The notes beneath the pieces were generated by a model. It was not told where the DNA came from. It saw nothing but the letters and a program-made list of their open reading frames with translations, and searched no databases. 64,000 bases of DNA from Verrucomicrobiota bacterium. GTDB lineage: Bacteria > Verrucomicrobiota > Verrucomicrobiia > Limisphaerales > J093. Below are positions 1 to 45,308 of this stretch, in pieces; within the stretch, counting starts at the first letter, position 1, and each line of letters begins with the position of its first letter. Position numbers and translations under genes: made by a program. The stretch covers positions 3,682 to 67,681 of the forward strand of contig JBEKGJ010000024.1 of assembly GCA_050012855.1 (NCBI GenBank), in the 5' to 3' direction.

Positions 1-641
1 AGCTCCAGCTCTGCTGGCAGATCTATGTGGACGACAACCACGGCCTGGTGCCGCCCAACCGCTCCATCTGGAACGGCGTGTGGCGCAGTTCGCCGGATTC
101 CTGGATTGGCTCCAGCAGCGCCCCGTACGACACCGACTTTGCGCCCATTCAGCAGGGCCTGCTGTTCAAATACGACTACAACCGCTCCGTGGCCCTCTAC
201 CATTGTCCCGCCGATCACTCGACGGTCGTAGGCCATCCGACCCTGCAACGGACGCGGAGCTACTCGATGAACGGCAACTTGGGCGGGCGGACCAACGAGG
301 TGCAGAACACGGTGGACCGGGCCGAGACCATCCCGAGCCCGGCGAAGCTGTTTGTGTTTGTGGACGAGGCGGACGATTCGATTGACGACGCGCATTTCCT
401 GGTCTGGCCCTACCCGGACACCCGCTGGGTGAACCTGCCGGCCGGCCGGCACGGGCAGTTGGGGGTGTTGTCCCTTGCCGACGGGCACGCCGAGAAGTGG
501 GCCTGGCAGTGGCCCAAGAAGTTCAGCCCCAAGACGGACTACTGGAAACTCGCCGAGAACGTCAAGGACCTGAACGACCTGCGCCGGCTCCAGACCGCGA
601 TCTTGACGGTGAATGACTTTGTGCCTCAAGGATTGCCGTGA
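1..641 (+). CDS. DUF1559 / prepilin-type H-X9-DG domain protein, 5'-truncated by the window edge
   Basis: YHCPAD, RSYSMN, FVFVDE..DSIDD and AGRHGQLGVLSLADGHAE (H-X9-DG); the reading frame is open from the window start; TGA at 639-641. Confidence 0.85.
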   Translation, partial: LQLCWQIYVDDNHGLVPPNRSIWNGVWRSSPDSWIGSSSAPYDTDFAPIQQGLLFKYDYNRSVALYHCPADHSTVVGHPTLQRTRSYSMNGNLGGRTNEVQNTVDRAETIPSPAKLFVFVDEADDSIDDAHFLVWPYPDTRWVNLPAGRHGQLGVLSLADGHAEKWAWQWPKKFSPKTDYWKLAENVKDLNDLRRLQTAILTVNDFVPQGLP

Positions 642-975
642 TGACAGAACCAAACCGATGAAACCGACAACCAAACCGCCCCAGAATGGGGCCAAGCGTG
701 CCGATGCCACAACAACACTCTCGCCGCGCCAGCAGCAGATGGTCGAGTTGGTCGCCCAAGGGGTTTCCAACGCCAAGATTGCGGCGAAGCTGGGAATCGC
801 TCCGGCGACGGTGCGTCGGCACTTGGCGGACATCCACCGACGCACCGGTCACGCTTTGCGCAGCGTAACGCTTGCGGTTGGGGTGGTGGCGGTGGCCGGC
901 GGTGTGTCCGACCCGCAAGTGGTGGCTACGACCATTGACGCAGACAAGGCTCAGGGTTTGGAGCCGGAAACTTCA
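270..975 (+). repeat. Direct repeat copy 1 (about 700 bp; 3' half of the H-X9-DG gene plus 5' half of the LuxR gene)
   Basis: Aligns colinearly with 1337-2041 at an offset of about 1067; e.g. cccaagacggactactggaaactcgccgagaa occurs in both copies. Confidence 0.9.
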
Positions 976-1254
976 TGCACGGGGGGTGCATACGTGGGCC
1001 AACGCGGGAGCGTCGCTCAGAGCGCAGCGAGGAGCGGTTCGGCCAGAAATATTCAAACAGCACAAACGCCGGCGAAGCCCTTGAGCCTGCGCGAAGATCA
1101 AGTGCGTAAGTTGGCTGCCCAAGGCAAGTTGGACAAACAAATCGCCATGGAACTTGGCATTAGCTACAATACAGTTAAGAACCACGAGCGGCGGATTCGC
1201 TTAAAACTTGGCGTTCCCAATATGAAAGCCGCAATCCACCAGTTGAAGCCATGA
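658..1254 (+). CDS. Regulator with two LuxR/GerE-type HTH domains and no receiver domain
   Basis: LSPRQQQMVELVAQGVSNAKIAAKLGIAPATVRRH and LSLREDQVRKLAAQGKLDKQIAMELGISYNTVKNH; ATG at 658. Confidence 0.8.
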   Translation: MKPTTKPPQNGAKRADATTTLSPRQQQMVELVAQGVSNAKIAAKLGIAPATVRRHLADIHRRTGHALRSVTLAVGVVAVAGGVSDPQVVATTIDADKAQGLEPETSCTGGAYVGQRGSVAQSAARSGSARNIQTAQTPAKPLSLREDQVRKLAAQGKLDKQIAMELGISYNTVKNHERRIRLKLGVPNMKAAIHQLKP

Positions 1255-1277
1255 ACACATAGTACGAAATGACCATA

Positions 1278-1305
1278 TTGACGCCCTCATAACCAAAGCT
1301 ACACT
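1278..1305 (+). promoter_or_regulatory. Candidate sigma70 promoter
   Basis: TTGACG-16 nt-TACACT in an AT-rich gap upstream of repeat copy 2 and the island genes. Confidence 0.4.
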
Positions 1306-1321
1306 TTGAACCCATAACGCT

Positions 1322-1708
1322 ATGACAATCGAGTCGAACGGCGACCTGAGCGAGCGGAACAACGAGCTACAAAACACCGTGGACCGGGCCGACGCCACCC
1401 CCAACCGGGCCAAGTTCTTTGTCTTTGTGGAGGAGGCGGAGGATTCGATTGACAACGCGCGTTTCCTGGTCTGGCCCAATCCGGACATTCGCTGGGTGAA
1501 CCTGCCGGCCGGCCGGCGCGGGCAGTTGGGGGCGTTGTCCTTTGCCGCCAGTCATGCTGGGAAATGGGCCTGGCAATGCCCCAAAACGTTCAGGCCCAAG
1601 ACGGACTACTGGAAACTCGCCGAGAATGTCAAGGACCTGAACTACCTGCGCCAGCGTCAGACTCTGATCCTAACGGTGAACGATTCTGTGCCGCAGGGGC
1701 TGCCGTGA
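1322..1708 (+). pseudogene. Degenerate partial duplicate of the H-X9-DG gene
   Basis: C-terminal part only; the motif has changed to AGRRGQLGALSFAASHAG (His and DG lost). Confidence 0.75.
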
Positions 1709-2041
1709 TATGAAACAACACGAATGAAACCAACACCCAAACCGTCCCCGGATGCAGCCCTGCTTGCTAACGGCGCACCAACGCTCACCCCTTGCCTGCA
1801 GCATATGGTCGGACTGGTCGCCCAAGGGGTTTCCAACGCTAACATTGCCGTGTGGCCGGGAATCGCTCCGCCGACGCTGCATCGGCACTTCGCAGACATC
1901 CACCGACGCACAGATTACACTTTGCGCAGCGCAACGCTAGCGCTTGGCCTGGTCACGGTGGCCAGCGATGTGTCCGAGCCGCGCGTGGCGGCTGCCGCGC
2001 TTAACGCGGGTAAAACCCCGAGTTCGGAGCAGGAGATCACG
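1337..2041 (+). repeat. Direct repeat copy 2 (diverged)
   Basis: Colinear with 270-975, with many substitutions. Confidence 0.9.
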
Positions 2042-2044
2042 TAA
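1724..2044 (+). pseudogene. Degenerate duplicate of the first LuxR HTH
   Basis: LTPCLQHMVGLVAQGVSNANIAVWPGIAPPTLHRH has helix-breaking substitutions; the ORF stops at the repeat end. Confidence 0.65.
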
Positions 2045-2066
2045 TCGGCTGCACTTACAACGTGTT

Positions 2067-2576
2067 ATGTTGTTTGACTTTCAAAACCGTCGCCGCTCTG
2101 GCGAATCCAACGTAGTACGGCTCTTCCTTAGCAGTGCGGCCATTATACTGCTCCTGTCAAGTGCGGCAAAGCTTTATAGTCTCACAACGGAAACGCGACT
2201 GCTCCAACTCCACGATCCGGTGTTCGATCTCCCATTCAGAACATTGTTCGCGCTGGTTGGAGGCTGGGAGATCGTCTGCAGTATGCACTGCATTTGTTCG
2301 TCCAACCATCTACGCAGTGTGGGAGTTGTAGCCTGGACCTCGAGCGCCTTCCTACTCTATAGAATAGGCCTTTGGGTTCTCGACTGGAGGCATCCTTGTG
2401 GTTGCCTCGGTTCGTTTGCTCAAACGACACTTATCTCGGATACAGCATTAGACCTGATTGCTCGCTGCCTGCTGCTTTATCTGCTAGTTGGCAGTTTGGG
2501 CACCCTTGTCGGTGTTCTGTACAGTCGCCATCAACTCACCTCGCTGCGCCGAACGTCCGACCATCTCACGACATGA
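2067..2576 (+). CDS. MauE/DoxX-family redox-associated membrane protein
   Basis: About four TM segments, LSSAAKL start motif, WE in TM2 and PCGCLG (the CGCxG of MauE); ATG at 2067. Confidence 0.75.
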   Translation: MLFDFQNRRRSGESNVVRLFLSSAAIILLLSSAAKLYSLTTETRLLQLHDPVFDLPFRTLFALVGGWEIVCSMHCICSSNHLRSVGVVAWTSSAFLLYRIGLWVLDWRHPCGCLGSFAQTTLISDTALDLIARCLLLYLLVGSLGTLVGVLYSRHQLTSLRRTSDHLTT

Positions 2577-3730
2577 CAGCAATATCATTTCTCCGTTTGA
2601 CATGCGGCCGAAGCGGCCCTTGGGCCGCTCTTCTATGCCTCCTTTTATCTGAACCTGGGTTCGGAGGCGACTTGCTCCTAGCAGGACTGCTCCGCCGCCA
2701 AGTTCATGAACAAAACGGCGCGTTGCTCGTTGATACGTCCTCGTCGTGCCAGATGTTCATTCAGGCCAAACGGCTTGTGGTGTGCTGGCAGGCGTCGCCC
2801 GATCGATGGGAGCGTTACTGGCTCTCAACGACGGGTCAAGTGGGCCAGATTGTGGTTCCGGGCATATTGCTACCAGAATCGCCACCGCGCCGCAACGTCG
2901 TTACAAATTACGTCATTGCCAGCGACATCCAGCCTCGTAACGCTACTCCCGAGGTTCGCCTTCTAGCAATCGCGATGATGAGCAGGGAACTTTGGGATCT
3001 TTCTCTTGCGCAGGGCTTCCTGCCCCCATGGGGCGATGATCAGTATGCAGACGCACTATGCACCACGCCACAAGCCGAGTTCGAGGAGTCCGCTTTGCCT
3101 ACTCTTTCCAGCCTCGAATTCAGATTTAATGAACCAGCCTGGAGGCTCGCGGCTGAGCGATGGGGTGGATCAAGGCGGTCTGCAAGGCAGACCCAAACAC
3201 CCTGGCCTAATGAGTTTGTTGAGGCGCGGCTTACAATCTCGGACTACGCAGTGTACGGGAGTCAACGTGTGGCCAAGACCTGGCTTTTCCAACATTACGC
3301 CGCCGTTGTCGACACTAATGCCCCGACAAAACACACAACCGACTTAAGCGCGAACGTTACCAACAACACGTTCGTAACAGAAACAGTGACGTTTCACCTA
3401 GTCTCAAGCACGAACATCGGTGTTCTGTCGGAGGTGCCCGACCTCAGTAATGAGGTGGTTGCGGATTTTCGCACCTGCAACGAGAAGAATCGAGGAGCCT
3501 ATAGTGTAGTGATCGGTGTGCCTGATTTGCAAACTGCGTATGGGAAGGCACTGAGCGCACGTCGATTGCACGAGAATGACGGCAGAATGCGCAGTGTATT
3601 TGGAGGTCACTCAGGTGCACCGCAAGTGAAGCATATACTACTGCTCGCTTGCTTTGTAATTTTGTCGCTTTTTCTTCCGCTTATGTTTCGCTGGAAGGGA
3701 AAACAAGAAATACAACATACAACAACCTAA
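2573..3730 (+). CDS. Hypothetical exported protein with a C-terminal membrane anchor
   Basis: ATGA overlap with the MauE-like gene; N-terminal hydrophobic stretch; C-terminal TM ILLLACFVILSLFLPLMF followed by RWKGK. Confidence 0.65.
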   Translation: MTAISFLRLTCGRSGPWAALLCLLLSEPGFGGDLLLAGLLRRQVHEQNGALLVDTSSSCQMFIQAKRLVVCWQASPDRWERYWLSTTGQVGQIVVPGILLPESPPRRNVVTNYVIASDIQPRNATPEVRLLAIAMMSRELWDLSLAQGFLPPWGDDQYADALCTTPQAEFEESALPTLSSLEFRFNEPAWRLAAERWGGSRRSARQTQTPWPNEFVEARLTISDYAVYGSQRVAKTWLFQHYAAVVDTNAPTKHTTDLSANVTNNTFVTETVTFHLVSSTNIGVLSEVPDLSNEVVADFRTCNEKNRGAYSVVIGVPDLQTAYGKALSARRLHENDGRMRSVFGGHSGAPQVKHILLLACFVILSLFLPLMFRWKGKQEIQHTTT

Positions 3731-3740
3731 ACATGTCACA

Positions 3741-4187
3741 ATGAAGACAAACCTTGCACAGCTAAAGCAAATCACGGCCTCGGCGGTGTGCGGAGTGTTG
3801 GCACTTGCAACGCTAGCGGTCGCTGTGGGTAACAATTCTAAGTGTCTTATGTCAGCAACAATTCAACTGCCGGATGACAAGGGTGCATGTACTCTCAGCC
3901 CGGGCCCTTACGGCTGGTCGAGCTGCGGCGGGTCTTGCTTCAGGTGGTCCGCGTTCAGTTCGAACTGGTGTGCGACGTGTTCGATCAAAAGCGACGATTG
4001 CAATTGCATTACTACGAACGCGTCTGTAATTATTAATGAATACAAGGGCACATGCGGCGGTACTACCTTGAGGGGCAATGTTGGGTGTTTGTGTTTATCC
4101 GTTAACGGGGCGGTCGTTATTACTAACGCGGCCGTAAGCACTCGGTTAGTGGGTGTCTCAAATCGAGACTGTTATGATAGCTTCTGA
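3741..4187 (+). CDS. Small secreted cysteine-rich protein (12 Cys in the mature part)
   Basis: Sec-type signal MKTNLAQLKQITASAVCGVLALATLAVAVG, then CxxxC, CxxC and two CxC motifs; starts 10 nt after the previous stop. Confidence 0.75.
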   Translation: MKTNLAQLKQITASAVCGVLALATLAVAVGNNSKCLMSATIQLPDDKGACTLSPGPYGWSSCGGSCFRWSAFSSNWCATCSIKSDDCNCITTNASVIINEYKGTCGGTTLRGNVGCLCLSVNGAVVITNAAVSTRLVGVSNRDCYDSF

Positions 4188-4985
4188 TTGTCAGGTGGTT
4201 AGGCAAGTCGGACGAACGTACGAGTAGGTGGCCAACGTGTAACGGGACTAGGGTAATCACGGGCCTCGTGTTGTTCGCGGGTACCAGTGTGTCTTATGTG
4301 AGCGGAGTGCAGTTCTTGCCTGGCTTGCCCACAGCGCAACCATAGCATGGGTAATTGATTGGGACAGGTTCGGGCAGTGTGAACAAGTCATTCGTCGTCG
4401 GGGGGCGAATATCGGCGTCGCACCGTGTGTGCGAAGGCAAGTGTGGCTCGCTCGAAGTAATGAGTAAATTCACAATCACACGTTTTGTGGCGATATTCTC
4501 CACCGCAAAAAGTGGTGCGGTACGCGACGATTGTGGTTCGTGGGCGCGTAGAAGGGACGTAGGTGGCGTCCGGCGTAAGCGCCGTGTGCTTCAGGACGCG
4601 AGGCAATGTACGTTTGTGCAGGGGTAGAACCGCGGTCGTTTTTTCTGACTGCTTGCTGAAAGGTGGTCGCGTCGGTAGTGGTGTACGTGACCGTGCCAAG
4701 GTTGCAAGGGCATGGGCCCCGGTGTAGAAGATACCTGCTGCCTTCATCGTATGGTGCGGGCTAGTGAGTGGCAGCAAGCGTGACGTTGGAGACTACTGCT
4801 GTGTGCCGCGAAACGAAGAGGGGTGCGTCGCCAACTTGCGGGGCGCGCTTGAGACTGTGCACATGAAGCGAACGCTGCTTCGATGGTGTGGCGTTGCCAG
4901 TGAACGGGGACGTGTACCCTGTAAGCGGAGGCCAGGTGGCAGCATTGGAGGCGAAGACGGCTTCTTTCGCAATGCCCCAGTGGCT

Positions 4986-6437
4986 ATGGCAGTTATCATG
5001 CTCGTCTTGTCAGGCTGGGGGAAACAGAGTTGGTTGGGAGGGGGGCCAACACCATTGTCTCGAATTGCGCTGATGCGAACATCTGTGCTCAACGGTGCGA
5101 TTGTCCTCGACGCCTACCACGAGTTGACACCGGACACGGCACTTGTTCGCGGGCATTATTACAGTGACAAGGCGCCGGGGACTGTGGCGCTCGCGATGCC
5201 GGCGTTCGCGGCATGCGCCAGCCTGGCTCGCGTCGCGGGAGTTGATCTGGATTCCAAGGTGGGCTGGCTGGTGACGGACTGGGCGGCCTGTGCCTTCTCG
5301 CAAGCCTTGCCCGCCGCGCTGGGCGCGGTGGCGTTGTTCGTCTGGCTGGGTCGGTTTGTTCGTCAGCGCGTGGCCTTGGTAACGGTGCTGGCGCTGTTTT
5401 TAGGCGGGATGCCGCTGCCCTATTGTGCGATGCTCTTCAGTCATGCCCAGGTGGTGGGGCTGATCGGAATTGCCATCTGGGCGCTTAAGCTGTTTCAAGG
5501 CGACGGAGGGCAGACGACAGAAGACGGGATCAGTCCGCGGCGGATGGCGTTGGCGGGATTCTGTCTGGGTCTGGCCCTGGCCAGCGAATACACGGCGGGC
5601 ATTGTGGTAGCGGCGCTCGTGGGTTACGTCGTCGTCCGGCATTGGTCGGTTTGGTGGCCAAGAGGGGTTAGTAACGGCTCGGCGAAGCCTCGCCTTGCCA
5701 CAAACGCCCTCGCGTCTCGCCCTTCGCCCCTCGGCCTTCCCCCCTTGCTCTGGTTTTTCGTGGCTGCCATTCCGCCGTTACTGCTGATCCCGGCCTACAG
5801 TTGGGCCACGATCGGGAACCCGTTCATCCTCCCTTACAGCCTGAATGAATCGTTCCCGGAGATGAAGCGGGGACTTTATGCTATCCAATGGCCCGACGCG
5901 GAGACGGCGTTCAAGCTGCTGTTCGGCCCCACCCACGGGCTCTTCTTCTGGTCGCCGTTCCTTTTGCTGGCCGGCTTCGGTTATGCCGCGCTGTTCCGCC
6001 GTTCGGTGGGCGCCTTCTGGCTGATGTATGCGGTGCCGCTACTGCAGGTCACGGTGATCTCCGGTCGGGTGTGGGACTGGCAGGCGGGCTTCTGCTTTGG
6101 GCCGCGGTATCTGGCCCCCATGCTGCCTTTGCTGGCCTTGCCGTGCGCCTTGGGCGTCCAGCGCTGGCCCAAGCTCGGAATCACACTGGGCATCTATTCC
6201 ATCGCCGTCGTCACGCTGGCCACCCTCACGGACGCCTGCGCGGATTACAGCGTCTATAACCCGCTCACGGAACAGAACATTCCAAAGTTCCTGAAGGGAG
6301 AATTCTCGCACACCTTGGGCACGGCGGTATTGGGTTTGCCGCCGTTCGTGAGCGTGGCGTTGTTCTACTCGATACTCATTGGGGGGATCGCCTGGCTGTG
6401 GCGTTTGACGGGCGAGCCGGACAAGGTTGAGGGCTGA
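4986..6437 (+). CDS. Polytopic membrane protein, probable GT-C-fold glycosyltransferase (start uncertain, 4863 possible)
   Basis: More than 10 TM segments; SR...DAYHE..D....GHYYSDKAPG loop, GLFFWSPF and WQAGFCFGPRYL motifs; clustered with GtrA and GT2. Confidence 0.7.
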   Translation: MAVIMLVLSGWGKQSWLGGGPTPLSRIALMRTSVLNGAIVLDAYHELTPDTALVRGHYYSDKAPGTVALAMPAFAACASLARVAGVDLDSKVGWLVTDWAACAFSQALPAALGAVALFVWLGRFVRQRVALVTVLALFLGGMPLPYCAMLFSHAQVVGLIGIAIWALKLFQGDGGQTTEDGISPRRMALAGFCLGLALASEYTAGIVVAALVGYVVVRHWSVWWPRGVSNGSAKPRLATNALASRPSPLGLPPLLWFFVAAIPPLLLIPAYSWATIGNPFILPYSLNESFPEMKRGLYAIQWPDAETAFKLLFGPTHGLFFWSPFLLLAGFGYAALFRRSVGAFWLMYAVPLLQVTVISGRVWDWQAGFCFGPRYLAPMLPLLALPCALGVQRWPKLGITLGIYSIAVVTLATLTDACADYSVYNPLTEQNIPKFLKGEFSHTLGTAVLGLPPFVSVALFYSILIGGIAWLWRLTGEPDKVEG

Positions 6438-6453
6438 GGGTGATGGTTGATGG
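6424..6453 (-). repeat. Heptamer tandem repeat of the (a/c)tcaacc family, reverse orientation
   Basis: aggttgag ggctgag ggtgat ggttgat gg. Confidence 0.55.
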
Positions 6454-6481
6454 ACTCAAACCCAGGCCGGGATGGCAGGCA

Positions 6482-6880
6482 ATGAACCGGTTTCTGCAAT
6501 TCTGCTTGGTGGGCGCCAGCGGCGTGTTGGTGGACATGGGACTGCTGGCACTATTGGTCCAACTTTCCGGGATGCCACTGGTGTTGGCTAAAGCCATCGC
6601 GTGCGAGATTGCCATCGTGAACAACTTTCTGTGGAACGATCACTGGACTTTTCGCGGCGTGGAACCGGCGCAGGGGCGCGGCGCGCGCTTCCTGTGGTTT
6701 AACGGCGTGTCGCTGGCCGGTCTGGCACTAAACGTGGCCCTGTTCGCAGCGCAGGTCCGGTGGCTGGGGATGAACTTGTATCTGGCCAATGCTGTCGCCA
6801 TCATCGTGGTGGCCGGCTTCAACTACACCCTGAGCCAGCAATGGGCCTGGCGGACGGCATCGCCCAGGGAGGCGGAGTGA
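6482..6880 (+). CDS. GtrA-family flippase
   Basis: RFLQFCLVGASGVLVDMG, NNFLWNDHWTF, FNYTLSQQWAW; four TM segments. Confidence 0.9.
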   Translation: MNRFLQFCLVGASGVLVDMGLLALLVQLSGMPLVLAKAIACEIAIVNNFLWNDHWTFRGVEPAQGRGARFLWFNGVSLAGLALNVALFAAQVRWLGMNLYLANAVAIIVVAGFNYTLSQQWAWRTASPREAE

Positions 6881-8103
6881 CCCGGTGGAAGGCTATGCCG
6901 GAAAGCGTCGGGATGGCGCTGGCGCTGGCCGGGTCGCTGGCCTTGCGGCTGTCGTTCTTCCCGTTTGTCAGCGGGGACATGCGCGGCGACATGATTCCGT
7001 GGTCGGAGATCATCGAGAAGCAGGGAGCCTGGAATTCGTTGGGGCAGGAGTTCAGCAACTATCCGCCGCTCTATCTTTACCTGCTGACGGTGGCGACCTG
7101 GCTGCCGCTGCCGCGGTTGTTCGCGATCAAGCTGGTTTATGTGGGGTTCGATTACGTGCTGGCGTGGTTTGTCGCCGGCATCGCCGTGGAAAGCGGGGCG
7201 GTGCGAAAACGCTGGCCGGTGATGCTGGCGACGCTGTGCGTGCCCACGGTGCTGATGAACAGCGCGCTTTGGGGCCAGTGTGACGCGATGTATGCCAGCG
7301 GGTTGGCCGCTTGCGTGTATTACCTGCTGCGGGGGCGTTCGGTCGTGGCAATGGTGGCGTTGGGACTGGCCTTTGCGTTGAAGCCGCAGGCTGTGTTTCT
7401 GGCGCCGCTGATCGTGGTGCTCGTCTGGAAGCGCCGATTCTCACCGCTGCTGCTCTATGTGGTGCCGGCGGTCTATGTGGTGCTGGCGGTGCCAGCCTGG
7501 CTGGCCGGGCGGCCAGTGGAGGACCTGCTGCTGCTCTACGCCCACCAACGCATCCTGCCCTTCCCGGCGCTGACGCTGGGGGCGACCAACCTGTATCAAT
7601 GGCTCGGGGGCGCGCCCTTCGTCCCTTTCTTCCAAATCGGGCTGGGGTCGGCTGGCGTCAGCGCTCTGGCTCTGGTGATTGCGGTTTGCCGACGGCATCG
7701 GGCTGGATTGTCCAACGAAAGGGTGCTTCAACTCGCTTTGGTTTCGTTGGTGCTCATGCCGTTTGTGCTGCCAGCCATGCACGAGCGGTATTTCTTCGCT
7801 GCGGACGCGCTGGCGGTGGCCTATGCCTTCTGGTTCCGCCGCGGCTGGATCGTGGCGGTGTTGATCCAGGTTGCCTCGGCGTTTACCTACCTGCCCTATC
7901 TGTTTGACTGTGAGCCCATTCCGCGACCGCTGCTGGCGGTAGCAATGGGCGAGGCCCTGGTGCTGCTGGTGCGGGACCTGTGGCGGGCCACGGAGGCAAG
8001 TGCGGAGCGTCATGACGCCACCGGGCAGGCGGTGGACGCGGCCAAGCCGACCAACCACTTGTCTCCCAATGCTGAACTGCCAGCCCGCTCAACTCCGCCA
8101 TGA
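6877..8103 (+). CDS. GT-C membrane glycosyltransferase (Gpi18/GT87-like)
   Basis: SGD, SNYPPLYLY, NSALWGQCDAMY, FALKPQ, PAMHERYFF; GTGA overlap with the GtrA gene. Confidence 0.85.
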   Translation: MTRWKAMPESVGMALALAGSLALRLSFFPFVSGDMRGDMIPWSEIIEKQGAWNSLGQEFSNYPPLYLYLLTVATWLPLPRLFAIKLVYVGFDYVLAWFVAGIAVESGAVRKRWPVMLATLCVPTVLMNSALWGQCDAMYASGLAACVYYLLRGRSVVAMVALGLAFALKPQAVFLAPLIVVLVWKRRFSPLLLYVVPAVYVVLAVPAWLAGRPVEDLLLLYAHQRILPFPALTLGATNLYQWLGGAPFVPFFQIGLGSAGVSALALVIAVCRRHRAGLSNERVLQLALVSLVLMPFVLPAMHERYFFAADALAVAYAFWFRRGWIVAVLIQVASAFTYLPYLFDCEPIPRPLLAVAMGEALVLLVRDLWRATEASAERHDATGQAVDAAKPTNHLSPNAELPARSTPP

Positions 8104-8831
8104 CGCCGCCGCTCATCAACGTCACCCTGCCGGCGTTCAACGAGGAAGCGCAGTTGGCGGAGAACACGCGCAAGGTGGTTGCCTTTCTGGCTGGGCAACC
8201 GTCGTCGCGATGGGAAATCCTCATCGCCGACAACGGCTCGACGGACCGGACCTGGGCCATTGCCCAGGAGTTGGCGGCCAACGGAGCCAGTGAGGCTTCA
8301 ACCGCAGTGAGCGTGCGGGCACGACACCTCGATGCGGCCGGGCGCGGCGGGGCGATCAAGGCGGCCTGGTTGGCCAGCAATGCGGACATCTTGAGTTACA
8401 TGGACGTGGACCTGAGCACGGATTTGAGCTGCTTGCCGGCGTTGCTGGCTGCGATCACCGAAGGCGGGGCGGATTTGGCGGTGGGGTCGCGATTGCTGCC
8501 AGCCTCGCGGACGACGCGGGGTTGGAAGCGGGAGGTGTTGAGCCGGGGTTACAGCCGGCTGATCCGCAGGGCGCTGGGACTGCGGGTTCGGGATGCCCAA
8601 TGCGGGTTCAAGGCGATCCGGCGGGAAGCGGCGCGGGTGTTGTTGCCACAGGTGCAGGATAGCGGCTGGTTCTTCGACACGGAGTTGCTGGTGCGGGCAC
8701 AGCGGGCGGGGTATCGGGTGGCCGAGGTGCCGGTGCGCTGGGTGGACGACCCCGGCAGCACCGTCAAACTCCTGCCCACCATCGGGCGCGACCTGAAAGG
8801 CGTCTGGCGGCTGCGGCGGGAGGCCGGTTGA
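8100..8831 (+). CDS. GT2 polyprenyl-phosphate glycosyltransferase (DPM/DPG synthase-like)
   Basis: PAFNEE, DNGSTDRT, YMDVDLS, DAQCGFKA, WFFDTELL. Confidence 0.92.
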   Translation: MTPPLINVTLPAFNEEAQLAENTRKVVAFLAGQPSSRWEILIADNGSTDRTWAIAQELAANGASEASTAVSVRARHLDAAGRGGAIKAAWLASNADILSYMDVDLSTDLSCLPALLAAITEGGADLAVGSRLLPASRTTRGWKREVLSRGYSRLIRRALGLRVRDAQCGFKAIRREAARVLLPQVQDSGWFFDTELLVRAQRAGYRVAEVPVRWVDDPGSTVKLLPTIGRDLKGVWRLRREAG

Positions 8832-11894: not shown

Positions 11895-14800
11895 ATGACT
11901 TGCACCGAAATCCTCGAGGCCTTGCGGGCGCTCACGGAGCGCGACCGCGTGGATTTCCTGCCGCTGGCGCCCGCATCCCAACCGCTTTCCCCTTACGCGC
12001 CGATCGCGAAATACCTCCTCGACTTGAAAAACGGCGCGAAACCCGAATCCGCCGCCGAAGATCTGTTTACCGAGCTGTGCAAAGACGTGCTTGGGTTCCA
12101 GCCGACGCGACAGGTTGGCGTCATGGAAGGTTTCGTGGATTTCATGCTGCCGGAGCGGATGGGCGACCCGCTGCCGCTGGAACTGAAGCCCCTTTTCCAG
12201 CGCGACGGCCCGGATGCCCTCTGGCGGGCCGATGCCAATCCGAAGAATCACGTGGCACAGGTCAAAAAGTACCTCCGCGACCACGAATACCTGATCCTCA
12301 CCGACCTCCGCACCGCCTGGTTTTTTGCCGCGCGCGATTTTTCCTTCGAAAACAAACCGTTTGGCGAACTGCCCTTCGTTGATTTTCTGAGCCGTTGCCG
12401 GGAAACCCGCAGCATGCTCGACACCTTGCGGCGCCTCGAAGACACCGCGGAGAAGCCCGAACTCGAGCGGCAGTTCTTCGAAGACCTCCAAATCTGGTTC
12501 AACGAATTCGACAAGGTCAAATGGACGCCGGCCGGGCAGGCCGCCGAATCCATCATCCTGCTGATCAACAAGCTGATTTTCGCCCGCACCATTGAGGACT
12601 TCGGCCTGGTGCCCTATCGCTACACCCAGGACGAATACGCCCGCCACACACGGCACTGGGAGGCCAAAGGCCCGCATCGTATCGTGCCCAAGTTCCTCGC
12701 CGAGTTTGAGGATTTCTTCGACGAATACTACGACACCGAGATTTTCTCCGCCCGCATCTGGGACCGGCTCGACAAGGACCCGGCCAACCTCAAGCGCTTC
12801 TGCGAGAAACTGAACTTCGTCCTCGGCGTCCACACCTGGGACCAGGCCTTCAGCCGCGGCATTGTTCACTACAACTACCGCCGCATTGACGAGGACATCT
12901 TTGGCAAAAGCTACGAAATGTTCCTGGCGTCCAACCGCAAGGACGAGGGCATCTACTACACACCCGCCGGCATCACCGGTCCAATGGCGGATTCGCTGGT
13001 CAACTCGCTCGCCGGGAAACTCGTGGATGAAATCTGCGCCGCCGTGGGCAGCCAGCAATGCGATTTCCAGCGCGCCGACCGGCTCATGGCCCGGCTCGCC
13101 GAAATCCGCGTGGCCGATACCGCCTGCGGTTCCGGCGGTTTCCTCATCAAGGCCCTGCGCGCCTTCTGGCAGCAATACCAGCGCATTGACCAGGCCAGCT
13201 CCTGGATCATCAAGCTGCTGAAGCCCGACAACGGCGAACTCTACCTCGCCGAGATGCCGCCCAACGTCGAGGCCGCCCTCGCTTTCCGCCGCCGCCACCA
13301 GTTCGAGAACCGCCGCATCCTCATCGCGCAGATCCTCCTCCGCCACATCTTCGGCGTGGACAAGGATTCCGGCGCCATCGAGGTCGCCAAAACCAATATC
13401 TGGAAGGAAGCCGTCAAACTCTCACCCGAAGACTACAACTACCGCCTGCTCAAGACCGACATCGTCCGCATCCTGCCCAACCTCGAACTCAACTTTCTTG
13501 CCGCCGATTCGCTCGTGGACGTGGAACTGGAAAAGCAAACCGCGTGGCTGGCGGAATACCATCAGGCCGAGTTGAAGAGACTCGCCGAACTCCGCGCCCG
13601 TTACATCGCCAACCCGATGGTCCACGAGCCGCTGTCGGAGGCGCTCGCCTTGCGCGAACGGCTCCGCGCGGATTTCGTCGAGCATTTCCAGGGCGAGAAT
13701 CTTCCCTGCGAGCCCGGCGGTTTTGCGCTCCATTTCTGGCCCTGCTGGTTCGATGCGGAGGGAACATTGAAGGGGAGCACACGCGCCTTGTGTGCTGCGT
13801 CCGGCGCCCCGCCGGACGCATCGGTCGCGCCCGGAAAGCAAGAGGCGGTCGGCGAGATGCCGACCGCAGCAGCCGGGGCGGCTGCGGTCCCCAAAAATGC
13901 CGCCGGCTTCGACGGCATCATCGGCAACCCGCCCTGGGAGGGCTTCAAACCCATCCGCAAGGAATTCGCCGCCGGCTTTTATCGCGACAAGCCGCAGTTC
14001 AGCAAAATGGGCATGGACGGCCCGACGTTCGAGAAGTGGTTTGACGAGGAATTGAAGGCCAACCCGGAATTCGCCGCCCGCTGGCATGGGCACGAGGCGT
14101 TTTACGAACGCCACAAGGAATATTTCGGGCAAACTTTCAAGAAGCAGGGCACCGGTGACTGGAATTTGTTCAAACTGTTCATCGAGCGCGACCTCTCGCT
14201 CGTCCGGGAGGGCGGACAATTCTCGCTGCTCGTCCCGTCCGGGTTCCAGACGGATGAAGGCTGCGCGGATCTCCGCCGCTGGTTCATCACCGAACACCGC
14301 TTGGATGAATTGACCTCGTTCGAGAACAAGGGCTGGCGAGAGGTTGACGAAGAAGGCAAGGAAAAGCGGAAACAGATTTTCCCGGATGTTCATCCGCAGT
14401 TCAAATTCGGGTTCTTCAAAGTCGTCAAAGGTGAAACGCCAGCCGTGGATCACGCATTTGACGCGCGCTTTTACCTTCACGACCCGAAAGACGTCTTCGC
14501 ACCGCCCATTTCATTTGCAGTTGGAATGATCGCCCAATTCTCACCGATGAATTTTGCCTTCATGGAGTTTCGTTCTTCGGAAGACTATCAACTCTGTAGT
14601 ACAATCCGCGACCGACATGACCTGCTTTACGAACTCGGATTCCGGTTCCGTCGAGAATTTCACATGACTGGCGATGCTGGCCTTTTTCGAAAGGCTAGAG
14701 GGAATAAACCAACAAAAGAGGAATTGGTGCTTTTTGAAGGGAAGATGATCCATCAGTTTGATTCGTCCTTCGCATCCGCTGCCAATTATGTTGGCGAGGA

Positions 14801-15482
14801 AGAGGGCCGCTCCGAGTTGTTACGTAAAGAGCTCTTTCGACTTGCTCAGCTCGTTCGAGATAGCAATATTTCGAAACTCGAGGAACGACCTGTACCAGCC
14901 ACAAGGGCCGAGCTTGAAGCGCTTTTGCTTAGCGTATTCAAATCGAAGCACTTCAAACTTCACTATGAGTGTCCACGATTGGCATACAGATCAGTTGGTA
15001 GAACAACTGACGAAAGAACGCTTATCGCGTCACTCGTTCCAACGAAGGTATTCATGGCCCATTCGCTATATTACCTCGTGCCGCTCTGCTACGGCCTGAG
15101 TGAAACAGGTGAGTTGAAACAGAGTCTGCAAGACCCAGAAGACATCATGGCTGTTCTGTCGCTTCTGAATTCTCTGACTTTGAATTTCTATATTCGCAGC
15201 AAGGTTTCAGCGAATTTGAATATTTCGGCCGTCGAAGAATTACCGATCCCCAAGCTGACCGCCACACAGAAAAGGAAGCTGACCGATTCCGCCGAGAAGC
15301 TGTTGAAAAACCCGGGCTACGTGCCGGAGCGCGCCGCGCTGGAGGTCTTCATCGCCCGCGAGCTTTACGGCCTGTCGCGGGACGACTGGCAACACCTTAC
15401 CGGCACATTCACCTTCGGCAGCGGCGCCACCAAGGAGGAATTGGACGAAATCATCCGCCAGTCCCTCGCGCTCTGGGCATAG
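11895..15482 (+). CDS. Type IIG (Eco57I-like) fused restriction endonuclease / N6-adenine methyltransferase
   Basis: N-terminal VDF..LELK (PD-(D/E)xK), GIYYTP, DTACGSGGF (motif I), FDGIIGNPPW (motif IV), C-terminal TRD-like region. Confidence 0.92.
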   Translation: MTCTEILEALRALTERDRVDFLPLAPASQPLSPYAPIAKYLLDLKNGAKPESAAEDLFTELCKDVLGFQPTRQVGVMEGFVDFMLPERMGDPLPLELKPLFQRDGPDALWRADANPKNHVAQVKKYLRDHEYLILTDLRTAWFFAARDFSFENKPFGELPFVDFLSRCRETRSMLDTLRRLEDTAEKPELERQFFEDLQIWFNEFDKVKWTPAGQAAESIILLINKLIFARTIEDFGLVPYRYTQDEYARHTRHWEAKGPHRIVPKFLAEFEDFFDEYYDTEIFSARIWDRLDKDPANLKRFCEKLNFVLGVHTWDQAFSRGIVHYNYRRIDEDIFGKSYEMFLASNRKDEGIYYTPAGITGPMADSLVNSLAGKLVDEICAAVGSQQCDFQRADRLMARLAEIRVADTACGSGGFLIKALRAFWQQYQRIDQASSWIIKLLKPDNGELYLAEMPPNVEAALAFRRRHQFENRRILIAQILLRHIFGVDKDSGAIEVAKTNIWKEAVKLSPEDYNYRLLKTDIVRILPNLELNFLAADSLVDVELEKQTAWLAEYHQAELKRLAELRARYIANPMVHEPLSEALALRERLRADFVEHFQGENLPCEPGGFALHFWPCWFDAEGTLKGSTRALCAASGAPPDASVAPGKQEAVGEMPTAAAGAAAVPKNAAGFDGIIGNPPWEGFKPIRKEFAAGFYRDKPQFSKMGMDGPTFEKWFDEELKANPEFAARWHGHEAFYERHKEYFGQTFKKQGTGDWNLFKLFIERDLSLVREGGQFSLLVPSGFQTDEGCADLRRWFITEHRLDELTSFENKGWREVDEEGKEKRKQIFPDVHPQFKFGFFKVVKGETPAVDHAFDARFYLHDPKDVFAPPISFAVGMIAQFSPMNFAFMEFRSSEDYQLCSTIRDRHDLLYELGFRFRREFHMTGDAGLFRKARGNKPTKEELVLFEGKMIHQFDSSFASAANYVGEEEGRSELLRKELFRLAQLVRDSNISKLEERPVPATRAELEALLLSVFKSKHFKLHYECPRLAYRSVGRTTDERTLIASLVPTKVFMAHSLYYLVPLCYGLSETGELKQSLQDPEDIMAVLSLLNSLTLNFYIRSKVSANLNISAVEELPIPKLTATQKRKLTDSAEKLLKNPGYVPERAALEVFIARELYGLSRDDWQHLTGTFTFGSGATKEELDEIIRQSLALWA
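13773..13892. repeat. Palindromic REPIN-like element inserted in-frame in the Type IIG gene
   Basis: 120 bp with four hairpins (agcacac/gtgtgct, tgcgtccggcg/cgccggacgca, gcggtcggc/gccgaccgc, gcagccg/cggctgc) and GGGA...TCCCC ends. Confidence 0.75.
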
Positions 15483-31748: not shown

Positions 31749-34700
31749 TCAATCCATCGGGGCCGCGGAAATGACCTCGGTCCCGGACAAACCGAACCGT
31801 TCCGGGTGGTACATTTCCTCGACCTTGGCCGGCGGCGCCGTCACGGTTCCCGCGGCCCGGACGCGCGTCAGATACCGGATGGTGTAACGGCCCGGCGCAA
31901 GGTCGTTGCTGAAAAACAGGGCGCGATCGGTCCGCAACTCGCGATGGTCGCTCACCCAATCCTCCGCCAGGTCCGCACCCGCGGTCGCCTGCGACTTGAA
32001 CTCCGGGTTGATCGCCTCAAACAACGCCGGCAGGGCATCGTCAACCGCCACATAATGCGCGGTCTGACGCACCACGAGTGTCAACGTGACCAGCACGCGA
32101 TCGCCGACGCGCAACCCCGTCACCGGTTGCGGCTGGTTCTTCTCATCGAGCCGCGCGTAGGCCCGTTGAATCGAATAACCCCGGTCCTGCCGGGGAGGGC
32201 GAGCCACGCTGGTCTGCGCCTCGAGGCTCGCCTGCGCGAAAAGCGGTCCCGACGCGGCGCTGCGCAATGTCAATGGTTGGTTGGCCCGCTCCGGCGCGAC
32301 GGCAAAGGCCCGTTCGTGGGCCGCCGGCGTTGACGGGAACGCGAACTCGGATTTTTCCTCGCCCCACTCCACCTTCGCGGCGCCTTCCGCGCGTCGGGCC
32401 TCGACGCGCTGGGCGTACTCCGCGAGGGCAAGCAGCGCCCAGGCATTGCCCTGCGTGGTGGGCCAGCGGCCGTTTTCATTGGCCGCGAACAGCTCGCTGA
32501 CAAGCACGTCCACCGCCGGATCCTGCGGCCGGAACCGCACCCAGGCCAGCAACCGGGCGCCCAGTTCGCTGGCCGCGTTGCCGAAACGCCCGCCCCGTTC
32601 GGCCGAGCCCGGTTCGGAACGCGGCGCCAGGAGTCCCGCGACCATCTCCGTCGGTCCGTTTGCCTCCAGGACCGCCAGCGCGAGCCACGAGGCGGCTTCG
32701 CCCGAAAGTTCGGCGCGACGGGCAAACAACGCTTCGTGATAGGCGGGCTCGGGTTTGCCCAACAACCCCAGGGCGCAGAGCGCGAGACAGTGGTCGCTCA
32801 GGACCAGACCGTCCCGGACATCGGCCGTGCCGGCGAGTTCCTTCCGCAGGTAGGCCGCGAGCGCGTCCGGGCTGGGCGAAGGAACCGGCACACACTGGCG
32901 TCGGGCCATAGCCAACGCGATCCCGCCATACGCGCTGCCCCAGAGCGTCGGCTCCGAACCGTGCGGCCAGTAAGCCAGGCCGCCGGCGGGAGTCTGCATC
33001 GCCAGCAGTTGGAAGACGCCTTCCCGCACCTGCCGTTCGATGAGCTCGACATTCGTGGCTCCCGGCAGGAACGCGGGCTGCGATCGCAGGACCAGCAACG
33101 GCAGCAGCTTCGAGCCCGTTTGTTCCACGCACCCGTAGGGATAGGCCAGCAGATAACCCGCCGCCTCGTTCAAATTGCCCAGGCGCGTGTTGGCCACCCG
33201 CACCGTCGCCGTTCCATGCCCTTCGAGCAATTGCGGGTTCGCGTGGGCGAGCAGGTTGGTCTCGCCGCCGGCCACGCGGGCGAGCAGCACCTCGCGCAAC
33301 CTCGGCGCGGCATAACCCACTTCGAGCGTGGACTGGACCGAGTCCATGAACGAGGCTGTGTCGGGGTCCGCCGCCGCGGCACCGCCGACAAACCGCGCCC
33401 GCCAAACCCACTTCGCGGAACCGGCGGCAACGCACTCGACCGGCACATCGAGCCAGCCCACCCCCTGCGCCGGCACCGTCACCCGACCGACCAACGCGGC
33501 GGCCGGCGCGCCGTTCGTGTCCAGCTTCGCCTGCGCGTCCAACGTCAGGCTCACTTCCACTTCGCCCGCGGCGTCCGTGCGGTTCAACACCACCGCGCGG
33601 GCCAGCAACCGGTCACCAACATTGGCGAAACGCGGGAGGGCGGGCTCGATCATCAACGGCTTGTTGATCCGCACCGCGGCCTCGGCGTTGCCGAACTGGC
33701 TGCGCGCCGTGTGGACCACCGCCACCAAACGGTACCGGGTCAGGTTGTCCGGCGCGGTGAACTCGAAGTTCACGCGACCCGCGGCGCCGGTCATCAGGCC
33801 GGCATTCCAAAACGCCAGGGCCACAAAGTTCTGCCGCATCCGCGCGAGGCCGCCGCCGCCCACCAGAAACCCCTTGTTCTGGAACCGCAGTTCCGCCGGG
33901 TCTTCCGGCATCAACTGCGTCAGCGTGATGCCGCTGGTGACGGCCAGCGGCCGCGGGGCGAAGAAGAACCCATACGGATCCGGCGCGGCAAAGCCGGTGA
34001 GACTCAGCACCCCCTCGTCCACGGCGAAAACTGTCACTTCGGCCGCCGGCACCGGCCGGCCGGTGGCGTCGGCGACCACCGCCGCCACGCGGACCGTTTC
34101 GCCGGGCCGGTGATCCGCCACATCGGGATGCAGTTCAACCAGAAGGCGGGCGTCCGGTCGAGCGACGTTGAGCTGGCAGTAACCGACCCGGTACTCCGGC
34201 ATCTTGCTTTCCCGCGTGCTGTCCGCCGCCCCGCGGACCAGGACCACCGAGACGAAGACGTTCGGCGCGTCGCCCGGCAGGATGGGCACCGACAGGGCCG
34301 GAGCGTTGCCCACGAGATTCGTCACAAACGCCCGCCGGACGCCATCGCGCTCGACGGTGACCAGCGCCGCGCCACTGATCGGCGTCTTCACCACAAGGGT
34401 GGCCGTGTCACCCACAACATAATTCGTCCGGTCCGGCACCAGTTCCGCCTGGACCTCGTTGCGGTAGTTCCAGCCCAGTGCTTCCGTGCCGGGAACGTAA
34501 AACTCAGTCGCGGTGATGACATCGCGTCCGCCCCCGTCCTTCGCGGTCGCTTCGAGCAAATAATACCCGGCTTGCGGAGGCGTAAACGACACGGGGGGCG
34601 CGGGCGCAACCGCCTCCCACCGGCCGTCGCGTTTCACCACTGCGGCGGTCTCGATCTCAGCCTGCGCCACCTCGTGCTGCTCGAGCTCGTTCCGATAACT

Positions 34701-37457: not shown

Positions 37458-37705
37458 GATCGGTCCTGGCGGGCACACTGAACGACGCCGTCTCCCTGTC
37501 AAGGGACGGTTGTTCACAAGACGCCTGTCTGGCGGGCGGCCCAACCGCCCGGCGGGCAGGTTTCATGGCCGTTGATGTGAAGTCGGCCAGGTCAGAGGGG
37601 CTTGCACCCGGCCGTCCAAGTGCGCTCTCCGGCGCAGCCAGTTCCGATGCGTCTGCCCGGGGGGGCAGAAATCTCGTCTTTTGCTTGATTTGGCTGGGGA
37701 AAAAA

Positions 37706-37784
37706 TGGGGTGGCTGACGGGATTTGAACCCGCGACAGCCAGATCCACAATCTGGAGCTCTAACCAGGCTGAGCTACAGCCACC
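37706..37784 (-). tRNA. tRNA-His(GUG) with G-1 and encoded CCA
   Basis: GGTGGCTGTAGCTCAGCCTGGTTAGAGCTCCAGATTGTGGATCTGGCTGTCGCGGGTTCAAATCCCGTCAGCCACCCCA folds as a cloverleaf. Confidence 0.97.
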
Positions 37785-43678: not shown

Positions 43679-43891
43679 CTACTTGTTGATCTCAAACCAC
43701 TCTTCGTAAGCGTCCTGCCACGCTTCCCAAAGTTGAGGCTCGGAATCCATGCCGAACGGATTCGGTGTTTCCTCAAAGCACGACGGATCACCGCGATATC
43801 GGGCTGCAGCCGCAGTGCCTGCTTGTTCACCGGTCGTTTTTGCCATGAGCGGTGTTGTCTTAGTATCTACTCTTGCGAATACGTTCTTCAT
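43679..43891 (-). CDS. Small hypothetical protein (70 aa) coupled to the nuclease gene
   Basis: ATGA overlap; NPF....LWEAWQDAYEEW motif. Confidence 0.6.
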   Translation of the reverse strand: MKNVFARVDTKTTPLMAKTTGEQAGTAAAARYRGDPSCFEETPNPFGMDSEPQLWEAWQDAYEEWFEINK

Positions 43892-45294: not shown

Positions 45295-45308
45295 TAAGCC
45301 TCACTTGG

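Follow-up and report, generated by a model that had tools for sequence, protein, structure and literature searches.

A MauE-like membrane protein, an anchored exported protein and a cysteine-rich secreted protein are encoded together as a recurrent module in an order of Verrucomicrobiota

A three-gene run, its recurrence and its exchange

Close to the beginning of the 64,000-nucleotide (nt) stretch of Verrucomicrobiota DNA analysed here (assembly GCA_050012855.1, contig JBEKGJ010000024.1, positions 3,682 to 67,681; hereafter the window) lie three co-oriented genes, which encode a MauE-like membrane protein (M), an exported protein anchored by a C-terminal transmembrane (TM) helix (A), and a small secreted protein rich in cysteine (C). 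M and A overlap by ATGA at 2573..2576, a gap of 10 nt separates A from C, and the guanine-plus-cytosine (GC) content is 0.49–0.57 over 2000..4500, as against 0.62–0.68 in the flanks. This lower-GC run, with the CGC motif of its MauE-like gene, the 385 residues of A and the 12 mature cysteines of C, had been described in a first-pass annotation of the same DNA, and all of these features are present in the sequence. We determined that the M-A-C arrangement occurs far more often than chance allows, and that the trio is a recurrent module of the order to which its host belongs.

The source organism is a peat bacterium, whose genome (G000) is 94% complete. Contigs from four peat or wetland metagenome runs, possibly the source samples themselves, span 530..1624 and 1597..5000 without a difference; of the 24 runs found, none was listed as a source of RNA. 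We rejected the possibility that the cassette is an assembly artefact on the grounds that the contigs of the four runs are identical across 1597..5000, an observation that rules out a one-off misassembly only.

Single-protein searches with M, A and C found no paralogue in the source genome, and an ordinary search with M returned a single relative, which is 38% identical. When 60 relatives of the same order were searched in six frames with M, 27 of them gave matches, often several and up to 11 per genome, some of which sit inside frames of 500–700 residues; the other 33 relatives had no match to the window's M. We collected 60 further loci around these matches and based a scripted census on 72 MauE-like open reading frames (ORFs) of at least 100 residues, located in 62 loci of 28 genomes, all from the order of the source organism. 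The counts that follow are lower bounds, since contig ends truncate many loci and cut ORFs escape the filter for cysteine-rich proteins.

As a candidate C, we accepted any same-strand ORF of 80–230 residues that has a signal-like N-terminus and at least six mature cysteines and lies no more than 3.5 kb from a MauE-like gene. Such an ORF was found for 49 of the 72 MauE-like genes, compared with 2 of 72 when the opposite strand was searched. The chance expectation is about 0.027 per neighbourhood, given that the same filter returns 36 ORFs, mostly obviously spurious, from the whole of G000. An anchored partner was present as a separate gene or fused to M in 47 of the 72 cases, and 34 had both the cysteine-rich ORF and the anchored partner. 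Inspection of MauE neighbourhoods for such partners had been proposed in the first-pass annotation; run within this order, it bears out the predicted association, and because the same trio recurs in relatives, the arrangement in the window is not due to chance.

Gene-order strings, compiled for 64 locus-strands, fall mainly into two types: M-A-C, including a fused M::A-C form, and A-C-M. In 30 of the 64, C follows A, or an M::A fusion, at a distance of under 150 nt. The fusion ORFs, of roughly 480–710 residues, match the profiles of both M and A and occur in at least 12 loci. In one locus (L057, G026:C13:50500-66286), five or more MauE-like genes are packed into 16 kb together with their anchored and cysteine-rich partners, some of them fused. 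Another genome (G042) carries five closely related copies of M on short contigs, which suggests expansion within the genome.

The corresponding site of a congeneric genome (G001) contains a different version of the cassette. Its flanks are 71–84% identical to those of the window at the DNA level, and between them lie, in this order, a LuxR gene with two helix-turn-helix (HTH) domains, a 178-residue MauE-like protein with a CPC motif, a 386-residue protein that bears a signal peptide and is anchored at its C-terminus, a 126-residue protein with a signal peptide and 10 cysteines, and a GT-C gene. The M proteins of the two genomes are only 25% identical, and the pairwise similarity of their A and C proteins is not recognisable. 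A quick maximum-likelihood tree was built from 67 M domains, with support from the Shimodaira–Hasegawa-like approximate likelihood ratio test (SH-aLRT) only. In it, the window copy groups with copies of other genera and families in a clade that is supported (98), and the syntenic copy of G001 pairs elsewhere with a copy from another genus (96). As the two copies belong to different clades, the site has been refilled and has not merely diverged. Furthermore, in 42 of 56 loci the GC content of the M and A genes is below that of their surroundings in the locus (average difference 4.3 points), and integrase and transposase remnants flank some of the eight loci scanned. Judged by these comparisons, the cassette is exchanged between genomes, multi-copy and hypervariable.

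The three protein families

The CGC motif of M (C111-G-C113) lies between hydrophobic segments at about residues 85–105 and 126–152, that is, in the loop between TM3 and TM4. Among 75 aligned ORFs of the family, K35 is conserved in 68 of 71, E68 in 71 of 72, C111 and C113 in 70 of 72 and G115 in 69 of 73, and Y98 is also kept. The residue before the conserved glycine is leucine in 57 of 73, and phenylalanine is found in only two of the motifs listed. Scores of the family against the Pfam MauE profile range from 17 to 31.9 bits; only a fused form (G001:C72) exceeds 27 bits, and others reach 20.8–24.7.

In the accessible text of a recent preprint (Gonzalez et al., bioRxiv 10.64898/2026.03.05.709764), MauE is presented as a DsbB-like protein that forms disulfides as a generalist. 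According to that text, MauE proteins of two phyla can take the place of DsbB in E. coli, the CXC motif between TM3 and TM4 is essential, a lysine in TM1 and a glutamate in TM2 are conserved near a predicted quinone site, and Phe-Gly follows the motif. M resembles this MauE in its four helices, in the CXC motif of the TM3–TM4 loop, in the lysine and glutamate of the first two helices, which were matched to the published residues by helix position only, and in the glycine after the motif. M is probably a quinone-linked disulfide oxidase.

A has an N-terminal hydrophobic signal, and its C-terminal TM segment is followed by a basic tail. Relatives of the window's A proved difficult to find: a word-indexed search and jackhmmer returned A itself only, a single-sequence six-frame search was positive in 0 of 60 relatives, and an exhaustive phmmer search of 1.84 billion representatives detected five proteins of the same build at 25–28% identity. 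An iterated search from a 390-residue member recovered 53 ORFs in the loci, including the syntenic G001 protein and the C-terminal parts of M::A frames, and did not reach the window's A. When the set around the window's A was compared by hhalign with the family of the syntenic G001 protein, the two aligned at 97.8% (E 8.9e-13) over 315 columns. By this profile comparison the anchored proteins, the window's A included, are one family. It is fast-evolving (15–25% identity) and has no conserved cysteine, some members having none at all, and no CXXC motif. Since A lacks conserved cysteines, it is not a disulfide carrier of the DsbA/MauD type and cannot relay disulfides.

A second group of anchored proteins (class B, loci L041/45/47/49) occupies the position of A. 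We rejected these as members of the A family, because they align to class A/W over 86 N-terminal columns only, and kept them as a separate family with the same position. No Pfam family is common to the 48 class A/W members, and Pfam and NCBIfam searches of the A proteins gave nothing consistent. A sequence search of the PDB yielded nothing for the alignment of the A family (A3) and only chance matches (E>1) for class B. Two results are leads only, towards an open beta-barrel fold of the LolA/RseB/TP_0789-like kind: a match to Pfam DUF2092 (E 2.8e-4) in the class B family, and the nearest named Atlas clusters to A, which are TP_0789-like, DUF4412 and MucB_RseB at 0.80–0.81. A also matches 30 Atlas clusters of hypothetical proteins of 363–397 residues, mostly labelled Verrucomicrobiota, with a feature score of 0.96. 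A wider search of the phylum with the A family alignment, in which only four candidates per genome were scored and only two genomes of the order were sampled, matched 1 of 400 other genomes.

The source genome encodes a second member of the A family on the minus strand (G000:C25:55698-56669), a 323-residue protein that has a signal peptide and lacks the C-terminal anchor. It has no MauE-like or cysteine-rich neighbour and adjoins a gene for a 767-residue secreted protein. In another locus, a 701-residue frame (L070:1839-3944, plus strand) matches the profile of the anchored proteins as well as a LuxR-type HTH domain (E 1.4e-9), and could be a fusion of regulator and partner, or two genes joined by the longest-ORF rule.

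C contains 13 cysteines, one of which lies in its signal peptide, an ordinary one of the Sec type, and about 118 mature residues. The 55 C ORFs of the census, two of which are M proteins caught by the cysteine filter, fall into 42 sequence clusters (phmmer, E 1e-3). In 13 homologous pairs of less than 90% identity, cysteine columns were kept at 135 of 154 positions versus 457 of 1198 other aligned positions, a comparison in which the scoring matrix somewhat favours the alignment of cysteine with cysteine. With estimated cleavage sites, the mature cysteine count is even in 39 and odd in 16 of the 55 ORFs. C is therefore hypervariable apart from its cysteines; it appears to behave as a disulfide-held, fast-evolving client, and is probably the client of M. 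Pfam and NCBIfam searches of the C proteins gave nothing consistent. We rejected the possibility that C is a spurious ORF, in view of its position after A, which is kept in 30 locus-strands, and of an identical Atlas entry.

Surroundings of the trio

The genes around the trio are listed in Table 1. All three gene types of a GT2, GtrA and GT-C glycosyltransferase set are encoded together at 4764..8831. The 557-residue GT-C-like protein has about 10 hydrophobic segments and matches the NCBIfam family of LA_3751/LA_3752 putative glycosyltransferases (E 2.1e-4). Its family occurs beside M in 13 loci and a homologous GT2 protein in 12. Overall, the GT-C types that recur beside the module are PMT_2-like, PIG-V-like, GT87-like and the 557-residue type, and GtrA and GT2 proteins recur as well. 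In about 23 of the 64 locus-strands, a GT-C-like gene directly follows M or C, often starting within a few nt of the end of M. Both GT-C genes of the window are unique in G000, where they lie beside the only cassette of the genome. Known systems of comparable make-up are three-component periplasmic glycosylation, which employs a GT2 polyprenyl-phosphate sugar synthase, a GtrA protein and a GT-C transferase, and protein O-mannosylation of the PMT type; the presence of GT2, GtrA and GT-C genes (GT87-like, PMT_2-like, PIG-V-like) beside the cassette resembles such systems.

Table 1. Genes and gene remnants at the start of the window, with the trio (M, A, C) in order of position
Feature	Coordinates	Strand	Remarks
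Prepilin-type (N-terminal methylation motif) DUF1559-like pseudopilin-like gene, 3' part	3..641	+	Start lies upstream of the window
LuxR/GerE-type regulator, two HTH domains	613..1254 (alternative start 658)	+	Pfam GerE, E 3.2e-27
Truncated copy of the pseudopilin-like gene	1322..1708	+	Tandem segmental duplication; tblastn, 75% identity to parent protein
Truncated, degenerate LuxR copy, first HTH only	1724..2044	+	GerE only E 0.063
M, MauE-type four-helix membrane protein, 169 residues	2067..2576	+	CGC at 2397..2405; Pfam MauE 18.9 bits
A, exported protein, signal peptide and C-terminal TM anchor, 385 residues	2573..3730	+	ATGA overlap with M
C, signal-peptide protein, 148 residues, 12 mature cysteines	3741..4187	+	ORF and cysteine count
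GT-C-like polytopic membrane protein (putative glycosyltransferase), 557 residues	4764..6437	+	True start probably further downstream in the ORF
GtrA-family small membrane protein	6440..6880	+	Pfam GtrA_DPMS_TM, E 3.8e-30
Second GT-C-type glycosyltransferase, GT87-like	6760..8103	+	Pfam GT87, E 1.9e-6; ORF start overlaps GtrA, true start probably later
GT2 glycosyltransferase (polyprenyl-phosphate sugar synthase type)	8100..8831	+	Pfam Glycos_transf_2, E 2.3e-25

Upstream of M, direct repeats (269..568 and 1336..1635 at 86% identity; 648..947 and 1714..2013 at 77%) mark a tandem segmental duplication (269..2015, with a period of about 1067 nt), which left truncated pseudopilin-like and LuxR copies between the LuxR gene and M. 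The contigs of the four metagenome runs agree with this duplication, which the first-pass annotation does not mention. The double-HTH LuxR gene that the first-pass annotation had counted as part of the system is present, and its GerE domain matches in two stretches, at about 34–72 and 156–209. However, because the duplicated fragments lie in between, it is about 810 nt away from M and not adjacent to it, and LuxR-type HTH genes were found in only 10 of the 62 loci.

The identity of the pseudopilin-like gene, which the window holds in part, follows from a full ORF in a related locus (L032) with an FTLIELLVV-type prepilin N-terminus, and from relatives elsewhere that match Pfam N_methyl and DUF1559. 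Genes of this family are present in 26 of the 62 loci, as compared with about 46 paralog loci in the 4.9 Mb of G000 (roughly one per 107 kb); the genes are enriched beside the module, but the family is a common one. A paralogue 92% identical to the copy that precedes the cassette is located at G000:C74:1673-2440. The earlier description of the system was thus too narrow, since GT-C glycosyltransferases and a pseudopilin-like gene recur as its neighbours.

Consistent with the earlier statement that mau genes are missing from the locus, no MauA, MauB, MauD or MauG domain was detected with Pfam and NCBIfam in the nine ORFs of 3..6880, and the same searches were negative for 84 ORFs of eight related loci. 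A genome-wide search of G000 with PF02975 gave no match, but the positive control gave none either, so the search is uninformative.

The segment between C and the first GT-C gene (4188..4763, about 570 nt) shows a strongly positive GC skew and contains neither an ORF that matches a known family nor anything recognised by Rfam. A promoter and terminator scan of 500..5000 gave no signal above that of shuffled sequences, and in the whole window Rfam identified a single tRNA (37709..37783) and nothing else. Further along, the window contains two restriction-modification loci, one at 11895..15482 with a 1195-residue fused methylase-endonuclease of the Eco57I/MmeI-like type, and one at 43888..46493 with an Mrr-like nuclease beside an N6/N4 DNA methylase, as well as genes for a 1931-residue bacterial alpha-2-macroglobulin (31749..37544, minus strand) and a class A penicillin-binding protein (51064..53349).

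Interpretation of the module

The explanation that we favour, with moderate confidence, is that M-A-C is a production line dedicated to the oxidative folding, and possibly also the glycosylation, of a variable secreted protein. M would act in the manner of DsbB, with its CXC active site in the periplasmic TM3–TM4 loop and electrons presumably passing to quinone. C would be exported by the Sec route, and its 12 cysteines would form about six disulfides. A would reside in the periplasm, tethered to the inner membrane by its C-terminal helix and without redox cysteines; beside M, to which it is fused in some genomes, it would capture or present the cognate C, which M would oxidise locally. Such a route would run without, or alongside, a thioredoxin-fold carrier of the DsbA/MauD type. 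The adjoining GT2, GtrA and GT-C proteins may glycosylate C or A in the periplasm, and the product would be a disulfide-knotted, possibly glycosylated secreted or surface protein. Fast sequence turnover, together with the exchange of cassettes, suggests that the product acts where the cell meets other organisms, for example in antagonism, adhesion or evasion.

The first-pass annotation had likewise proposed that MauE serves here as a dedicated folding partner. The association with cysteine-rich ORFs, the fusions and the CXC motif support that part of the proposal, but the description was incomplete, as it lacked the GT-C and pseudopilin-like neighbours and the multi-copy exchange. A more far-reaching version, which we put forward tentatively and consider rather doubtful, is that M-A-C is a new DsbA-independent device in which an anchored non-thioredoxin adaptor, A, delivers the cognate hypervariable C directly to a private MauE oxidase; it would be GT-C-coupled, exchangeable and diversifying, and would give Verrucomicrobiota and other bacteria of the Planctomycetes–Verrucomicrobia–Chlamydiae (PVC) group a polymorphic system of secreted effectors or of surface variation.

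Several observations weigh against a dedicated folding line. The window's M scores 18.9 bits (E 0.0019) with Pfam MauE (PF07291), for which the gathering cut-off is 27 bits, and the phenylalanine reported after the CXC motif is leucine in this protein. Direct oxidation of C by M is an assumption, as there is no thioredoxin-fold gene in the module; in the available text of the preprint, MauE is argued to work normally through a thioredoxin-fold intermediary, and 8.2% of MauE entries are fused to members of the thioredoxin superfamily (10.64898/2026.03.05.709764). For C, no relative was detected among 79 word-sharing candidates, no usable Atlas feature match was obtained, and the Atlas model has no confident fold (predicted local distance difference test, pLDDT, 0.39). 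By our heuristic, 23 of the 72 M genes lack a cysteine-rich ORF, a figure whose true value is uncertain, since many of these loci are truncated at contig ends and the heuristic overlooks some genuine cases. The genomes of the census are kin, so that its counts overstate independence. Finally, in G000 no DsbB above the cut-off (the best match, at 18.4 bits, is an ORF resembling the major facilitator superfamily) and no VKOR was detected, which makes a general role for its single M possible.

The main rival is a toxin-immunity cassette, in which C would be a disulfide-stabilised bacteriocin-like protein, A an anchored immunity protein that sequesters C at the surface of the producer, and M would only mature C. 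Anchored lantibiotic immunity proteins provide a precedent, and the variability of C (42 clusters among 55 ORFs), the fast evolution of A, the adjacency of A and C, multi-copy arrays such as that of L057, and the signs of mobility (lower GC, integrase and transposase remnants in some loci and replacement of the cassette at the syntenic site) would all be expected of such a system. However, no dedicated exporter, C39 peptidase or double-glycine leader was found in the eight fully scanned loci, and no exporter, peptidase or radical S-adenosylmethionine domain adjoins the module in them, which sets them apart from class II bacteriocin loci and from those of the ribosomally synthesised and post-translationally modified peptide (RiPP) type. 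An immunity protein fused to the oxidase is hard to rationalise, and the M::A fusions appear to point more towards A as a working partner of the oxidase. A soluble orphan homologue of A, moreover, exists without M or C. On balance, we regard the toxin-immunity reading as unlikely.

M could also be a housekeeping oxidase, a general substitute for DsbB that has A and C as ordinary neighbours or clients. The lack of detectable DsbB and VKOR in G000, where the only other PF07291 match is a DoxX-type protein without CXC, is compatible with this, as is the generalist role that the preprint, in its accessible text, assigns to MauE (10.64898/2026.03.05.709764). Yet 33 of 60 relatives have no match to M, whereas others have as many as 11, every copy accompanied by an A and a C of its own. 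Nineteen of the 60 relatives carry VKOR, and eight of these also carry the cassette; fusions of M to A occur in several genomes, the congeneric genome has another cassette lineage at the site, and in a genome that is 94% complete a VKOR gene may simply be unassembled. Taken together, the many copies with their own A and C, the co-occurrence with VKOR, the fusions and the relatives without M suggest that M is dedicated rather than housekeeping, and we consider a housekeeping role improbable.

Equally improbable, in our estimation, is a reading in which M and GT-C mature a glycosylated pseudopilus or other surface appendage, to which the pseudopilin-like protein, C and A contribute as structural components or assembly factors. 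In its favour, the pseudopilin-like genes are enriched, and GT-C, GtrA and GT2 genes recur beside the module, the GT-C genes being unique in G000 and cassette-adjacent. Against it, the abundance of the pseudopilin-like family makes its co-occurrence partly a matter of chance, and the place that these genes take relative to M-A-C differs between loci; in the eight loci scanned, genes for a secretin, an ATPase or a platform protein were not seen, and C varies far more than a conserved structural subunit should.

The dedicated folding line has partial parallels among known systems. MauE helps to mature the small exported subunit of methylamine dehydrogenase, which has about 12 cysteines and six disulfides, as stated in the accessible portions of two sources (10.64898/2026.03.05.709764; PMC7794033). 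As in mauE/mauD/mauA, the gene for a MauE-type membrane protein adjoins that for a small exported protein containing about 12 cysteines; in contrast, the locus described here lacks a MauD-type thioredoxin, MauA, MauB and MauG domains and tryptophan tryptophylquinone (TTQ) chemistry, and has a cysteine-free anchored partner, a hypervariable client and a multi-copy organisation. From the generalist MauE, as the available text of the preprint depicts it (10.64898/2026.03.05.709764), M differs not only in its leucine and its sub-cut-off Pfam score but also in being cassette-bound, multi-copy and fused to a non-thioredoxin protein.

Like VKOR-thioredoxin and DsbB-DsbA, the module combines a membrane oxidase with a dedicated periplasmic partner, sometimes fused, although A, unlike those partners, has neither CXXC nor a conserved cysteine. 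The VKOR proteins of the relatives are encoded in frames of about 450–500 residues. Candidate RiPP families of Streptomyces identified with decRiPPter, as described in the accessible part of that study (PMC7794033), have a mauE homologue beside a precursor with at least eight cysteines and lack the rest of the mau cluster. They belong to a different phylum, their precursors are small peptides whereas the proteins considered here have about 120–150 residues, and that part of the study mentions neither an anchored A-type partner nor GT-C genes.

In the literature covered, which did not extend to the supplement of the preprint, we found no description of a module of MauE, a cysteine-free anchored partner and a hypervariable cysteine-rich protein, nor of its coupling to GT-C, GT2 and GtrA. 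What the present analysis adds is a family that occurs in many copies within one order, fusions of M to A, the adjacency of A and C, the replacement of the cassette at a syntenic site, and the coupling to GT-C genes.

MauE has only recently been proposed as the second most common disulfide-forming enzyme of bacteria. The module offers a recurrent candidate client, C, and a non-thioredoxin partner, A, and makes the mode of action of MauE testable in a system of three genes. The link to GT-C genes hints at protein glycosylation in Verrucomicrobiota, and the hypervariable, cassette-swapped, cysteine-knotted proteins represent an untapped family of stable secreted proteins in abundant, mostly uncultured Verrucomicrobiota of peat and soil.

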